From a virus: 64,000 bases of DNA. Below the pieces are notes generated by a model. The model did no database searches. It saw nothing but the letters and a program-made list of their open reading frames with translations, and was not told the origin of the DNA. Below, in pieces: positions 42,714-48,140 of this stretch. The stretch covers positions 102,432 through 166,431 of IMG/VR virus record IMGVR_UViG_3300045988_147738; one strand, written 5' to 3'. Numbering within the stretch: the first letter of the stretch is position 1; every line of letters begins with the position of its first letter. The translations under genes were made by a program, and so were the position numbers.

Positions 42714-42900
42714 TGGTGCCCCGTCGGGGATTTGAACCCCGGACCAATAGCTTAATGGAGGCGGAAATGAGATTTGAACTCATATTTCTTCCCATTGTTC
42801 GTCGGTCAATGAATTAATAAAACTTTTTGATCGAGTTCGGAATTGTATTTCATTATACGATTCCACCAAGGCTACTGCTCTACCACTGAGCTAACGGAGC
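42714..42900 (-). tRNA. tRNA-Lys (UUU) interrupted by a 112-nt anticodon-loop insert
   Basis: 5' part GCTCCGTTAGCTCAGTGGTAGAGCAGTAGC-CTT and 3' part TTAA-GCTAT-TGGTC-CGGGG-TTCAAAT-CCCCG-ACGGGGC-A-CCA are separated by 112 nt. Joined they give anticodon loop CTTTTAA and a sequence very close to E. coli tRNA-Lys. The insert begins GGTGGAA and ends TTCCGCC-TCCA (7-bp terminal helix), with an internal ATGAG-TTCAAAT-CTCAT hairpin. Confidence 0.6.
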
Positions 42901-43335
42901 ATGTTGCTGGAAAAAATTTACCAAAACTGGAAAAAAATTGGAAATACGCGTGAGAAAAAAAACAAGGCACGTTGATTTAAAAATTTCTAGCATTAATTAT
43001 AATCATCTAATAATTGCTGTTTGTGCCTTTACCTATTCAATAAATAACCTGCCGTTCTTCATTGCTTTCGAATGTTTTGTCGATAATCGCCACATTCCTA
43101 CTAGCTATGACCTCCTAAGAAGACAAGTAAAAAAGGCTCATTAAACATTATCGTTCTCAAATTGACAATGGTAATTTTCGAGAGCCCCATCATCGCATCT
43201 ACACTTAGATAACTCTTCATGAGCCATGAGTAGCGCTATTAATTATAGCATCATCCTTTTTTGGTAGAAATAACTTTCTAATAAAAATTTGCTGCACGGC
43301 TCTCAGTATTATATGAACAATCCCATTAAAGGGAA

Positions 43336-43410
43336 TGGAGCAAGTAAAGGGAATCGAACCCTCATCCTCTGGTTGGAAGCCAGATATATTAGCCATTATA
43401 CTATACCTGC
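43336..43410 (-). tRNA. tRNA-Gly (UCC)
   Basis: GCAGGTA…TCTGG-CTTCCAA-CCAGA…GAGGG-TTCGATT-CCCTT-TACTTGC-T-CCA. Confidence 0.65.
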
Positions 43411-43542
43411 GTAAGCATTTTCTTTATGAAGTTGAAAATGCCAAACAATCTTACCTTTGGGGATAGGGATTTAAAGAAAAGGCTTTTGAAAGTTCTTTAA
43501 CTTTCTATATATATTATACAAAAATTTTTTGAAAATGTCAAA

Positions 43543-43860
43543 TTATTTGTTTTTATAATATTTACGATACTCCTTACGAGTTTGTTCTCGTGTAGGATAC
43601 GGTTCATGCCAGCCATTAATCTGACGTGAATACCATTGATCTACCATAAATTTATAATATGTTTCAAAATCAGGCGCAATAGTACAAAAATCACAAATAT
43701 TCCATGATTGATATGCTTTGCGATATGATTTATAATTCAGTCTATCATCAGAATTTTTCAAACGCTGTCTAACTACTCGATTAGCATAACGTTTCAAATC
43801 TTTGGATTTCTTGTCTCCGCAATAAGGGGTTTTCTTATATGAACGAGAAATAATAATCAC
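43543..43860 (-). CDS. Hypothetical basic protein
   Basis: 105-aa ORF with RBS AAAGGAGTG. Confidence 0.4.
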   Translation of the reverse strand: MIIISRSYKKTPYCGDKKSKDLKRYANRVVRQRLKNSDDRLNYKSYRKAYQSWNICDFCTIAPDFETYYKFMVDQWYSRQINGWHEPYPTREQTRKEYRKYYKNK

Positions 43861-43877
43861 TCCTTTATTATGATAAA

Positions 43878-43956
43878 TGGTGCCGCTGACCGGACTTGAA
43901 CCGGTACGACTTTAGGGTCGGCAGATTTTCGTACTACTCTATATCACTATAGCCAC
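43878..43956 (-). ncRNA. Non-canonical tRNA-like element (T-arm ACCGG-TTCAAGT-CCGGT, 3' CCA; anticodon-region loop CCUAAA)
   Basis: Canonical T-arm and a CCA 3' end, but the acceptor and anticodon stems do not pair in a standard cloverleaf. The loop CGAC-CCTAAA-GTCG contains CUA/UAA. Confidence 0.3.
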
Positions 43957-44007
43957 ATTACTGTGTTGTAGTCTGGACTATGTCTTCACCATATCAAATG
44001 ACTTAGG

Positions 44008-44470
44008 TGGTTGGTATATAGTCTCTACACATTTATTTGACACAATTTTTACCACGATAAGAATCTGTAAATGCATGGCAATTTGGACATAATAACTAAT
44101 AATTTTCTAAAACATTATTATTTCTATTACCATCTTTATGATGTAGTTCTAATGGAATAGGTTGCCCTAACCATTCAGTCATACCACAACATTCACATTG
44201 ATAATTTTTATATCCTTCTCGTAATAATTTATTTCTTACTTTATTACTTTGAATGTCTAAACTAGAATCTAAATATTCTTGTAATGGCATATAATTATTA
44301 TTTGATTTTGACTACCCCTTACCGCTTTGATTTCCAGAATAATCAATACCTAATTTAGCAAGAACTGAATTAATTGTTTTCGGATTACAATTCAATTCTC
44401 TAGCCATATAAGCCTTAGACTAATTTTTATCTATCCATTGTAATATTTCATTTTTTCGTTCTAAAATATC
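44008..44470 (-). CDS. HNH homing endonuclease; three in-frame TAG codons
   Basis: …CECCG…LELHHKDGNRNNNVLENY(TAG)LLCPNCHA… HNH motif; track ORF 44096..44290 extended on both sides. Confidence 0.55.
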
Positions 44471-45010
44471 AGTTCGCATAAAATGCTCCTTTTAAATTAA
44501 TCTCTTTCTATATATTATATCAAAATTAATTTAAATAAATTATCTTACACTGTCCAAAAATTTTAGAGCGTGTGCCAAAACTTAGCACGGCGTTCTGTGT
44601 TTGCCTTCGCCGTTTTAGCCAACTTCTACTCTAAGAGTTTCCTCTTAGGCACTCTCTACGAAAATCCTCGTAGTCCACATTTGTGGAAAACACATTAAAG
44701 TCTGCTGTGTCTGCCTATTCCACCACAGCGGCATATAACAAGGCTCTAAATATGTAAAAAAAATTTTTCAAGCAATTTTTCGAGATTGTATTTTAAAAAC
44801 ACAAATTTGCTGTAATGAGCCTTTATTTATTTTTTTTGTTTTGTATGAATATATTTTTTTAGAAATTTACAACCGCCACATCCATTTTTATTTTTACAAC
44901 GATAACAATTATCAGTGTCAAAATAAAAATACCAAGGTGGTTCAGGGCGTTTTTTTCTTACTTTTTGTTTCATTTTCTATATATATTATATTATATTTTT
45001 TTAAATTTGT

Positions 45011-46033: not shown

Positions 46034-46114
46034 ATATTAATTTATATACCGCACTAAATCTCTAATAGAGCAAGTTAGCTAAACTTATGACCACGGCCAT
46101 CCGTGCGGATATTA

Positions 46115-46189
46115 TGGAGCCGGATGACGGATTCGAACCCCCGACCTATCGCTTACAAGGCGATTGCACTACCACTGTGCTAATCCGGC
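46115..46189 (-). tRNA. tRNA-Thr (UGU)
   Basis: GCCGGAT-TA-GCAC-AGTGGTA-GTGC-A-ATCGC-CTTGTAA-GCGAT…TTCGAAT…ATCCGGC-T-CCA. Confidence 0.65.
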
Positions 46190-46644
46190 ATTTGTATTTA
46201 AATTTTCTAAAATCATTTTTGATTTAGATTTTCGATTCTTACGCTCGCTCTCGCCCGGAGCGCACTTATAAACAAAAAATCCCTGTTATTAATAATGTCA
46301 TCGCTTACTTCATAACCACTAAAGCGCACCTTGTGTTATGCTACCTACCTGTTAACCATCAGCTACTTCACTATTAATAACAGAAAAATTCTGTCCAATA
46401 AAACTCCTGTATTATGTTTGGCAGGCGAATAGGACACCTTACATTCATTTTATTGACAAATCATTAACGTACTCCAAACAGCTCATAATCATTAAACTAT
46501 ATCCTATAACTCACCTTGTCATTTCGACACAAGGGCCCGCCCTCGCTATTATAACTTTATGCTTGGGGACTCATAGGTAATCAAATATCCAACACACGCT
46601 CTCGGTGTATTGCCACTTGATGGGATTTCACCTTTATAACCTAC

Positions 46645-46732
46645 TGGTGGGCCGAGAGGGAATCGCACCCACTCGAACCATAAGGTATCAGTTTTACAGA
46701 CTGACGTGCCTACTTTAACACATTACCGGCCC
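46645..46732 (-). tRNA. tRNA-Tyr (GUA), type II
   Basis: GGGCCGG…TCAGT-CTGTAAA-ACTGA plus long variable arm, T-arm and TCGGCCC-A-CCA. Confidence 0.6.
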
Positions 46733-46959
46733 AAATATTCGATTTTGTTTAAGGTAAATCGAGAACCTTGACAGTGTGTGTCTATACCAAAAATCTATTC
46801 CGCGGTTATAGACTACTCTTTAAATGATGGACACTTCGAATCCTACATCCTGTCTCAATGAAGACTTATCAATGGTTTATATACATATTGCTTCATTTTC
46901 TTAACGCAAGAATTAGTATTAACCAGCATTACCACGGGGAGGTTTCTTACTTAATGCCG

Positions 46960-47030
46960 CACCGGCTCTCGGATTCGAACCGAGGCGACCTGATTTAGAG
47001 TCAGGCGGGCTACCATTACTCCAAGCCGGA
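46960..47030 (-). tRNA. Amber suppressor tRNA (anticodon CUA), tRNA-Gln-like
   Basis: Anticodon arm CCTGA-CTCTAAA-TCAGG (anticodon CUA), T-arm CTCGG-TTCGAAT-CCGAG, discriminator G73 and a weak 1:72 pair (GlnRS-type identity). CCA is not encoded. Confidence 0.6.
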
Positions 47031-47273
47031 ATATCTGACAAGGCTCTAATGAACAACCCAAGTTGAATCTTCATTCCTAAAATTTGCTGGATAAGCCTTT
47101 ACTTTATATATTTATTATATAATATTTTTTTTAAAATGTCAAATTATTTCATATTACGCAATTTGCGCTCAGCTTTACGAATTAGGTTGGCATTGACAAC
47201 CTCACCCTTAGCCTTCAGTTTTGCGATACGATACTCGTAATGTTTCTTAGTTCGAAAATTCATATTGCTCTCC

Positions 47274-47624
47274 TTATCTAAAACCTACTTTATCATACAT
47301 TGGAGCATAACTCTTGATATGCTTATGAGTTAAAACGCCCAATAATTTTTCATTTCCATCTACCTCTTGGATATAAATTTGAGAACTATCTTTAGAAACA
47401 GCAGAACGACCTCGCGGATAAGTCAAAGATTTAGCACATTTTTCCAATTGATTCATATCAATCGTGCTAATTTCCATTCGACCACGACTACCAATAATTG
47501 TAAAAACAGGTAAACCATTTTTCAATTTAGGATTTGCGTCAAAGATTTTACCACACCAATTCATATGATATTCTTCATGAATATCAGTGATAATTAAATG
47601 AGTTTTGACCGCGACTTCTTCCAT
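47274..47624 (-). CDS. Hypothetical protein
   Basis: 116-aa ORF. Confidence 0.4.
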   Translation of the reverse strand: MEEVAVKTHLIITDIHEEYHMNWCGKIFDANPKLKNGLPVFTIIGSRGRMEISTIDMNQLEKCAKSLTYPRGRSAVSKDSSQIYIQEVDGNEKLLGVLTHKHIKSYAPMYDKVGFR

Positions 47625-47942
47625 TTTTACCTCTGTTTAAATGAATTAAAAAAATTCATTACATCATCATTTATTTCCATTGTGTTAATATCTTCGCTAC
47701 GAGGAGCGGGTTTTGATGGATAATATGGATTTTGTTCTCTAAAACAATTTAAAAGATGTTTTGCTACACCTTCTTGTGTTGAAAATCCTATATTACAAAT
47801 TGGACAAATATACATTATTTTCCTCACTTATTTCTGGTCCGGAGCGGGTTATCTGCGTCATCTAGACCCATTTTTTAAATCCTCACATATTCGTTCAGAG
47901 CAGCAAATTCTTAATTAAATATATGATTTAGCAGAACTCCGG

Positions 47943-48140
47943 TGGCACGGCCGGCTGGACTCGAACCAGCAGATGCAGGAGTCAGGGCGAGAAAATGAGA
48001 CTTGCACTCATACTACCAATCATTCCGGTTGGTGTCCTACTAACAGAACTTATATTATGCTACTTAACCCATCACATAATATAACCCATTTAAACGATTT
48101 CTCGAAAGTCCTGTGCCTTACCTGTTTGGCGACGGCCGTA
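47943..48140 (-). tRNA. tRNA-Gln (UUG, or CUG depending on junction) interrupted by a ~122-nt anticodon-loop insert
   Basis: 5' part ACGGCCG-TC-GCC-AAACAGGTAA-GGC-A-CAGGA-CTT(T) and 3' part (T)GAC-TCCTG-CATCT-GCTGG-TTCGAGT-CCAGC-CGGCCGT-G-CCA; 3-bp D-stem and G73 as in tRNA-Gln. The insert begins CGAGAAA and ends TTTCTCG-CCCT (terminal helix), contains an ATGAG-TGCAAGT-CTCAT hairpin, and shares GAAATCGT/TAAATG motifs with the Lys insert. Confidence 0.55.

Follow-up and report, generated by a model that had tools for sequence, protein, structure and literature searches.

Interrupted tRNA genes in the tRNA array of a large phage

The window analysed here, a stretch of 64,000 nucleotides (positions 102,432 to 166,431 of IMG/VR virus record IMGVR_UViG_3300045988_147738), comes from a large phage genome, and nearly all of its open reading frames (ORFs) lie on the minus strand. 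A tRNA array of 25 genes occupies 42.4-58.8 kb on the same strand. Two of these genes, tRNA-Lys(UUU) and tRNA-Gln(UUG), are split in the anticodon loop by inserts which, as described below, are well supported as tRNA mimics and as members of a widespread family of mobile intervening sequences. The parts of the two genes are listed here.

42868-42900, minus strand: tRNA-Lys(UUU) 5' exon (acceptor 5' strand, D arm, 5' strand of the anticodon stem, CUU), matched by the Rfam tRNA model and equal to the 5' part of the tRNA-Lys gene of the relative L034
42756-42867, minus strand: tRNA-Lys insert, tRNA-shaped, 112 nt, with ends set by the empty site of L034; 36.2 bits with the Rfam tRNA model on its own
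42714-42755, minus strand: tRNA-Lys(UUU) 3' exon (UUAA, 3' strand of the anticodon stem, T arm, acceptor 3' strand, ACCA)
48105-48139, minus strand: tRNA-Gln(UUG) 5' exon, placed by ARAGORN on the joined exons and 100% conserved in six relatives
47984-48104, minus strand: tRNA-Gln insert, 121 nt, a diverged family member with central hairpins of its own
47943-47983, minus strand: tRNA-Gln(UUG) 3' exon, placed by ARAGORN on the joined exons and by comparison with the relatives

The Rfam tRNA model covers positions 42717-42900 (184 nt) with 51.8 bits and treats the Lys insert as a single insertion. In L034, a syntenic relative in which the order Cys-Lys-Gly-Leu-Ser-Thr-Tyr-Sup-Gln-Val-Arg-Pro and the flanks are the same as in the window, the orthologous site holds an uninterrupted tRNA-Lys gene that is identical to the joined Lys exons at 75 of 75 positions. 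Therefore, the Lys junction (CUU|UUAA, between U34 and U35, within GUAGCCUU|UUAAGCUAU) is exact and unambiguous, and the insert extends over 42756-42867 (G...UCCA). The exact offset could not be discriminated by ARAGORN, which takes any equal shift and odd loop sizes, and was settled by the empty L034 allele. The occurrence of the tRNA-Lys site in occupied and empty form among close relatives shows a discrete and precisely bounded element.

The Gln exons meet at GGACUUU|GACUCC, where a one-T ambiguity allows either 34/35 or 35/36, and ARAGORN calls the joined exons as tRNA-Gln(UUG). More than 120 viral contigs contain the joined Gln anticodon arm without interruption, although no true empty-site Gln allele was among them, as the uninterrupted tRNAs with exactly this arm differ elsewhere. 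The Arg(UCU) gene of L034 was also considered as an empty allele and was rejected as a different tRNA. A preliminary description of this DNA, made from the letters and their ORFs, had proposed that a Lys-UUU and a Gln-UUG gene are split in the anticodon loop, and this is borne out by the empty Lys allele, the ARAGORN call for Gln and the Rfam match. Its insert length was right for Lys (112 nt) and one too long for Gln (122 instead of 121 nt), and its insertion point after CUU (34/35) holds for Lys by comparison with L034 and is one of two choices for Gln. It had also considered that the halves might be chance matches, with complete uninterrupted tRNAs elsewhere; no other Lys or Gln tRNA is present in the array.

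In fact, the array has no Lys, Gln or Arg(UCU) tRNA besides the interrupted genes (for the Arg gene see below). Minimum free energy folds of both the Lys and the Gln locus give the terminal helix and hairpin of the insert together with the stems of the host tRNA. Among six relatives the two exons of the Gln locus are 100% and 98.7% identical, compared with 94.8-97.3% for the insert and flanks. The exons of the interrupted genes thus look constrained.

The inserts have the architecture of a tRNA

The preliminary description had noted that each insert begins with a 7-nt strand pairing with a strand near the 3' junction, that a 4-nt tail follows this helix, and that the two inserts share an ATGAG-TNCAANT-CTCAT hairpin. 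All of these features are present, and the folds agree with them. What had not been recognised is that helix, hairpin and tail correspond to the acceptor stem, the T arm and the NCCA end of a tRNA. The hairpin is a T arm with a 5-bp stem and the loop UUCAAAU or UGCAAGU, abutting the 3' strand of the terminal helix; the tail represents the discriminator and CCA (UCCA in Lys, CCCU in Gln); and 3' of the 5' strand there are U8, one further base and then a 4-bp D-like hairpin. The Lys insert reads GGUGGAA / UC / D-like arm GUAU-AAUGAA-AUAC / 46 nt / T arm AUGAG-UUCAAAU-CUCAU / UUCCGCC / UCCA, in which the 46 nt at the anticodon-loop position of the mimic are the remnant of a homing-endonuclease ORF. 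The Gln insert retains an acceptor-like closing stem (CGAGAAA/UUUCUCG) and a T-arm-like hairpin (AUGAG-UGCAAGU-CUCAU, 47995-48011), followed by the tail CCCU.

Searched alone, the Lys insert matches the full Rfam tRNA model (positions 1-71) with 36.2 bits and an E-value of 1e-6, where the gathering score is 29. For other inserts of the family, searched in the same way, the scores are 47.9 (L027), 39.5 (L044) and 26.9 bits (L031, just under the cut-off), so that the RF00005 cloverleaf is recovered above the gathering score from the insert itself for Lys, L027 and L044. ARAGORN labels three inserts 'tRNA-???'. In a core alignment of 16 sequences, all seven pairs of the closing stem change on both sides and 100% of the cells are paired, against 37-51% in slid controls, with the caveat that complementarity had served to find members or to locate their 5' ends. 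The D-like stem had no part in the selection and covaries as well (GUAU/AUAC, GAAU/AUUC, UUCU/AGAA, GUUC/GAAU, GUGU/GCAC). U8 is invariant, bases 1-2 of the D-loop are A, and the conserved positions of the inserts are all tRNA features. It is therefore well supported that the insert RNA mimics a tRNA, from the 7-bp acceptor-like stem through U8 and the D-like arm to the T arm and NCCA.

The boundaries follow a simple rule. If an insert is taken to start with the first base of its closing stem and to finish with the last base of the 4-nt tail, a 7-nt anticodon loop is left in 27 of 27 non-redundant cases, while the insertion point itself shifts between 34/35 (Lys, Leu), 35/36 (Arg, Gly, Asn) and 36/37 (some Glu). 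The constant loop and the shifting insertion point together suggest that the cut sites are set by the fold of the insert rather than by the host tRNA. A complete scan in which the tail was left unspecified returned 17 matches, and the tail was NCC in every one. In all detected cases the insert has the same orientation as its host tRNA (ARAGORN searching both strands). The features of an RNase P substrate (7-bp acceptor and 5-bp T stem, T loop, NCCA) are present in all CCA-type members, and the Lys 5' junction is the +1 position of the mimic.

A family of inserts with and without endonuclease ORFs

Family members were searched for with the T-arm motif on viral contigs, in a genome collection, and by a generic structural scan of the fetched loci. 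About 35 nested inserts were found, both on phage contigs and in genome bins of Bacillota; the first set alone contained 27 that were non-redundant. A motif search of metagenome contigs had been proposed in the preliminary description. The combined searches gave about 35 tRNA genes with the same architecture; such recurrence is not chance. The hosts comprise nine tRNAs, namely Lys-UUU, Gln-UUG, Arg-UCU, Gly-UCC, Glu-UUC, Asn-GUU, Leu-UAA, Ile-UAU and Tyr-GUA. The window holds a third copy, beyond the coordinates originally described.

54240-54275, minus strand: tRNA-Arg(UCU) 5' exon, third interrupted gene of the family, with a compensatory acceptor-stem change relative to L001
53333-54239, minus strand: tRNA-Arg insert, tRNA-shaped, 907 nt, found by the motif search; a 90% identical copy is in L001
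53291-53332, minus strand: tRNA-Arg(UCU) 3' exon, same locus as the Arg insert
53357-54142, minus strand: GIY-YIG homing-endonuclease ORF in the Arg insert, 261 aa with six in-frame TAG codons (Pfam GIY-YIG 37.3 bits, cut-off 22.6)

The Arg insert reads GUUAAAU / UA / D-like arm / GIY-YIG ORF / T arm AUAAG-UUCAAAU-CUUAU (53344-53360) / AUUUAGC / UCCA, and the stop codon of the ORF falls in the T stem. The same design is seen elsewhere in the family: the insert ORFs encode a GIY-YIG or HNH nuclease (HNH-type in L086, L039 and L091) joined to one common C-terminal DNA-binding module, whose stop codon lies within the T stem. The ORF-bearing inserts measure 445-907 nt, and those without an ORF are 60, 62, 63, 68, 75, 77, 86, 95, 112, 121, 132 and 158 nt long. 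Since the short inserts still hold the last codons of the ORF (...GAAUGG...AUAUAAG), they are deletion derivatives of ORF-bearing elements, the 112- and 121-nt inserts of the window included, and the essential RNA is only about 60 nt. The preliminary description had treated the small inserts by themselves; their origin as ORF-less derivatives of endonuclease-bearing elements goes beyond it. Both marks of a mobile intron with a homing endonuclease were found, an ORF within the element and occupied and empty alleles of the Lys site (window versus L034). It is well supported that the inserts form a widespread family of mobile elements that interrupt phage tRNA genes.

In the deposited phage genomes only short matches to HNH genes and tRNAs were found, and no relative. 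The close relatives are viral contigs of 130-200 kb, all from one metagenome. The genome collection yielded three matches, on contigs of 125-158 kb binned with metagenome-assembled genomes of Bacilli or Eubacterium, and the hosts are therefore probably Bacillota.

Two groups of free-standing tRNA-like genes, L029/L067/L071/L072/L080/L109 and L038/L083, share the T arm and the NCCA end of the inserts. Their anticodon arm is abnormal, with either 12 nt in the loop or a 6-bp stem and a loop of 5 nt, and there is no recognisable tRNA around them. They may be related to the nested mimics or be the source of these. The tRNA arrays of insert-bearing relatives also contain a ROOL RNA (340.8 bits, L044 3240-3847) and a RAGATH-33 RNA (126.8 bits, L028 1933-2061).

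On a rival reading the inserts are not spliced. They would be selfish elements with a homing endonuclease, derived from a captured tRNA gene, and would have knocked out dispensable phage tRNA genes, whose halves are left as decaying pseudogenes. Phage tRNA genes are indeed accessory, the array is rich in homing endonucleases, and exon joining is here predicted from sequence. However, the exons are intact, and no other part of the Gln locus is as well conserved, the Lys exons equal the functional-looking allele of L034, and the acceptor pairing of the Arg gene has been preserved relative to L001 by a compensatory change. The interrupted genes are moreover the only copies for their anticodons. 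ORF-less inserts as short as 60 nt retain the closing stem, the D-like arm and the T arm by covariation, which selection at the DNA level alone would not achieve. Every insert runs in the direction of its host tRNA, and exactly seven loop nucleotides are always left. We therefore regard the absence of splicing as quite improbable.

Comparison with other intron classes

Neither the Rfam Intron_gpI model nor the group II models gave a match over the window at the gathering score, in the region 42000-49000 at E<=10, or on either insert alone. Group I was rejected because the core is not matched, the inserts end in A, or in U for the Gln type, and never in G, and position -1 is occupied by C in hosts of the Arg and Gly types and in several of the Glu type. 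Among insert segments that could pair with the exon-exon junction, and might thus serve as a guide or splint, the best matches were no better than in shuffled sequences in 24 of 25 cases. Group II and III introns were rejected since the inserts start with GGUGG, GUUAG, GAUGA or CGAGA and end with CCA or CCU, as against GUGYG...AY, and have no domain V; the hairpin near the 3' end is a T arm, has no bulged A and lies inside the terminal helix. A bulge-helix-bulge, in which each splice site lies in one of two 3-nt bulges on opposite strands with a 4-bp helix between them, was rejected from sequence and folds, as no staggered bulges can be drawn. Both junctions lie at one end of a helix, the 5' site at the base of the 7-bp helix and the 3' site 4 nt past that base. 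The preliminary description had likewise excluded group I and group II introns, and the missing Rfam matches, the last base A or T, the absence of a guide above chance and inserts as small as 60-68 nt all agree with it.

A small self-splicing ribozyme of a new kind, with a fold that only resembles a tRNA, or an extremely reduced intron of the group I, II or III type, would explain why the inserts share the anticodon-loop site and the homing endonucleases of bacterial group I introns, and a group-I-like intron does lie at 34/35 of tRNA-Leu(UAA) in the same array. This is nevertheless highly improbable. Besides the lack of Rfam intron matches, the last base that is A or U and never G, the C at position -1 in the hosts named above, a guide complementarity not above shuffles, and the absence of GUGYG...AY and of a domain V, the functional-looking members are as small as 60-68 nt, and their conserved positions are all tRNA features, so that nothing is left for an active site that would carry out two transesterifications. 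No description of tRNA-like introns was found in full-text literature searches, and the element was rated as a new kind of intron.

Two further interrupted genes, Leu-UAA and Trp-CCA, lie in the window and, like the Arg-UCU gene, are additions to the preliminary description. The tRNA-Leu(UAA) gene (43878-44732, minus strand) is interrupted at 34/35 by a group-I-like intron of 768 nt (43930-44697), with U at -1, the end ...GUAGUACG, a terminal G, and an HNH ORF (44033-44479) with in-frame TAGs. An uninterrupted allele is present in L034. The intron was not detected by the Rfam Intron_gpI model, and the gene was missed by ARAGORN and Rfam. The phage therefore hosts the two kinds of element side by side. 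The tRNA-Trp(CCA)-like gene (60201-61011, minus strand) has no encoded CCA and carries a 738-nt insert after CUCCA, which ends in ...UUUUAGAUGG, has A at -1 and has no T-arm-like hairpin. Its ORF combines a PD-(D/E)XK N-terminus (PDDEXK_5, 55 bits) with the C-terminal DNA-binding module of the GIY-YIG and HNH insert ORFs.

Standard tRNA finders left the Lys, Gln, Arg(UCU), Leu(UAA) and Trp genes of the window uncalled or miscalled. As interrupted genes are missed in this way, the tRNA repertoires of recoded gut phages, and the codon-usage inferences made from them, are systematically incomplete.

Proposed excision of the inserts and joining of the exons

The preliminary description had favoured either a small-intron class of its own or a phage splicing system that depends on proteins, and the tool results lend support to such a reading. 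Since the inserts are tRNA mimics, a concrete mechanism can be proposed for the protein-dependent form of it, with the following genes of the window as candidates.

26747-28117, minus strand: candidate exon-sealing ATP-dependent RNA ligase, DRB0094-like, with an N-terminal OB/tRNA-binding-like module (Pfam, NCBIfam)
25030-25536, minus strand: P-loop polynucleotide-kinase-like protein, end-healing candidate (Pfam AAA_33; partial NCBIfam matches to the bacterial Pnkp kinase domain and PSTK)
24275-25030, minus strand: metallophosphoesterase, end-healing candidate (Pfam Metallophos_2)

Our best model, in which we place about half of our confidence, is that the mimic is excised by RNase P and a tRNA 3'-end endonuclease and that the halves are joined by a phage RNA ligase. 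In the precursor the host cloverleaf and the nested mimic would form together. RNase P would then take the mimic for a tRNA and cleave at its +1 position, leaving the 5' exon with a 3'-OH, and an RNase Z-type endonuclease would cut its 3' end, after CCA in phages that encode CCA or at the discriminator in those that do not, leaving the 3' exon with a 5'-phosphate. The halves would be held together by pairing of the host acceptor and anticodon stems while an ATP-dependent RNA ligase, for which the DRB0094-like protein (26747-28117) is the candidate, closes the nick in the anticodon loop; the adjoining kinase and phosphoesterase would act if the ends require healing. At the DNA level, the endonuclease would carry the element into empty tRNA alleles.

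These steps have precedents. Bacterial RNase P is satisfied by a stack of acceptor and T stem and makes use of the 3' NCCA. RNase Z cuts CCA-less precursors after the discriminator and leaves a 5'-phosphate, and the enzyme of Thermotoga maritima cuts after CCA. T4 Rnl1 seals nicks in the anticodon loop.

The 3' ends of the inserts also fit the model, and their relation to the local tRNA genes is the most informative of the correlations. In every CCA-encoding locus the inserts end in NCCA, or in NCCU for the Gln type. In L159, where CCA is encoded in none of seven ordinary tRNA genes, the insert likewise lacks CCA and stops at the discriminator; in L118, with CCA in 2 of 12 tRNA genes, the insert end is 0-1 nt past the discriminator. 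The 3' junction thus seems to copy the 3'-end format of the resident tRNAs, as would be expected if their 3'-end machinery also made this cut.

Several points weigh against the RNase P and 3'-endonuclease model. The joining of the exons is a prediction from DNA. The 3' cut is its weak link: an encoded CCA inhibits RNase Z in most of the bacteria studied, where CCA-bearing precursors are finished by exonucleases, and such finishing would destroy the 3' exon, so that a nuclease cutting exactly after CCA must be assumed for the (probably Bacillota) hosts. The correlation with CCA comes from only two CCA-less loci, and the L118 boundary requires the argument of a 1-nt shift. The Gln insert alone is not recognised by the Rfam tRNA model, its first base is C, and it terminates in CCCU. 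As for the ligase, its matches are at or below curated cut-offs (Pfam RNA_ligase 26.9 bits, cut-off 27; NCBIfam TIGR02306 RNA_lig_DRB0094, E 3e-10, partial), a PDB sequence search with it returned no relative, and homologues were found on 6 insert-bearing contigs out of 29 matches in a protein-pattern search that reaches close relatives only. Characterised ligases of the DRB0094 type act on duplex nicks and not on loops. The kinase and phosphoesterase would be superfluous for ends of the RNase P/Z type and may instead serve the repair of anticodon-nuclease damage.

Some of these difficulties would disappear if a dedicated phage or host endonuclease read the tRNA-like fold and cut by transesterification, leaving a 2',3'-cyclic phosphate and a 5'-OH, with the kinase and metallophosphoesterase healing the ends and the ligase sealing them. 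This would be a heal-and-seal pathway of bacteria and phages analogous to fungal Trl1 or T4 Pnkp/Rnl1. The kinase, phosphoesterase and ligase genes all lie within 4 kb, the block of RNase Z by CCA is no longer a problem, and boundaries defined by structure suit any enzyme that reads the mimic. However, no candidate for the nuclease was found among the tested ORFs of the window (a Pfam search of 16 other window proteins gave no RNase Z-like or other candidate splicing nuclease), and a repair cassette has an ordinary other role in countering anticodon nucleases. The pathway also leaves unexplained why the 3' end of the insert matches the resident format with or without CCA and why the 5' end is exactly at the RNase P position. 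We consider it unlikely, and excision by RNase P and a tRNA 3'-end endonuclease remains our preferred reading.

The existence, architecture and mobility of the tRNA inserts are well supported, and it is the splicing pathway that we infer specifically. On this basis we propose, somewhat more tentatively than the excision model itself, that 'tRNA-mimic introns' could be a third mechanistic class of tRNA introns, in which a homing endonuclease travels in a decoy tRNA that is excised by RNase P and a tRNA 3'-end endonuclease, with an RNA ligase (e.g., of the DRB0094 type) rejoining the exons, and that they could be the first case of protein-dependent tRNA splicing in the bacterial and phage world.

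It has been reported that the DRB0094 ligase is enriched 140-fold in recoded gut phages and that the CCA-adding enzyme is also enriched (PMC10879173); the same paper, on theta ribozymes, makes no mention of introns.

Other features of the window

Further candidates for RNA metabolism on the minus strand are a weakly RlaP-like (RNA-ligase-associated Pol-beta) nucleotidyltransferase (30004-30801) and a PIN+PhoH fusion protein (18990-20243). At 35567-39759 (minus strand) a major-vault-protein-like ORF (MVP shoulder, Vault_3; 830 aa) adjoins a DUF2828/DUF7788 protein (509 aa), a pairing that is unusual for a phage and lies near the genes of RNA-repair type.

A suppressor tRNA(CUA), labelled 'Pyl' by ARAGORN, is located at 46959-47030 (minus strand), and in-frame TAG codons are frequent, with eight in the ORF at 34104-34859 and six in the GIY-YIG ORF. 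This tRNA and the many in-frame TAGs indicate that TAG is read as a sense codon in this phage, probably reassigned to Gln. ORF lists made with translation table 11 break up the TAG-containing genes.

Homing endonucleases are abundant in the tRNA array, where GIY-YIG, HNH and PD-(D/E)XK ORFs occur. More free-standing ORFs of this kind, with GIY-YIG-type N-termini or HNH, are on the minus strand at 12852-13541, 34104-34859, 49725-50282 and 59446-60090, and the region is heavily colonised by selfish nucleases. A permuted tRNA-like element lies at 45030-45130 (minus strand), with its 3' part first, followed by UAU and its 5' part. The 3' part comprises an anticodon-like arm UGGA-UAGUAAA-UCCA, a long variable arm, a T arm and CUGGCCC-A-CCA, and the 5' part is GGGUCGG-UA-D arm-GUGGA. 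The acceptor strands are complementary, and the arrangement is kept in L034.

Comparison with known systems

To our knowledge, the tRNA introns of bacteria and phages are thought to be self-splicing group I ribozymes, and protein-dependent tRNA splicing is held to be a trait of archaea and eukaryotes. If the proposed pathway is true, the inserts would represent a new intron class and a new means by which a homing endonuclease renders its insertion harmless. It would also give a natural function, with a physiological substrate, to the RNA ligase and Pnkp-type 'repair' genes that are widespread in large phages, and would bear on the origin of protein-spliced tRNA introns.

The group I introns of cyanobacterial tRNA-Leu(UAA), Azoarcus tRNA-Ile and Synechocystis tRNA-fMet (with I-Ssp6803I) share with the inserts the site in the anticodon loop, endonucleases of the GIY-YIG, HNH or PD-(D/E)XK type, presence/absence polymorphism and ORF-less derivatives. 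Unlike them, the inserts have no P1-P9 core, internal guide, terminal G or obligatory U at -1, and without an ORF they measure 60-121 nt, whereas group I introns have at least about 200 nt. Because the insert RNA is a tRNA mimic, catalysis by the insert itself is unlikely.

The tRNA introns of archaea and eukaryotes, which are cut by EndA/Sen and rejoined by RtcB or Trl1, are likewise small and lie in or near the anticodon loop, and the presumed removal by proteins, with the tRNA body holding the exons together until a ligase joins them, is common to both. They differ in that the inserts have no bulge-helix-bulge and take their cut sites from their own fold, not from such a motif or a ruler in the mature domain, and in that the inserts sit in bacteriophages and bear homing endonucleases.

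The proposed excision of an embedded tRNA or mimic at its +1 position and its discriminator or CCA end is known from mitochondrial 'tRNA punctuation', the MALAT1 mascRNA, the tRNA-like domain of the bacterial Y RNA YrlA and the stable RNAs in the tRNA cluster of T4. In those systems the flanks become products of their own and are never joined again; in the genes described here the mimic lies within the anticodon loop of another tRNA, so that excision must be followed by ligation, and the insert therefore counts as an intron.

The proposed use of a phage kinase, phosphatase and ligase on a break in the anticodon loop resembles the T4 Pnkp/Rnl1 repair of tRNA-Lys cleaved by PrrC, and the bacterial Pnkp and DRB0094 enzymes. 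The targets of such repair are typically Lys, Gln, Glu and Arg tRNAs, which are also hosts of the inserts. T4 repairs damage inflicted by its host, whereas the inserts would be subject to programmed splicing by the same chemistry. Finally, the split and permuted tRNA genes of Nanoarchaeum equitans and Cyanidioschyzon merolae also consist of discontinuous halves that are joined in or near the anticodon loop, but their processing is of the bulge-helix-bulge type, whereas the halves of the genes described here are collinear, with a tRNA mimic between them.

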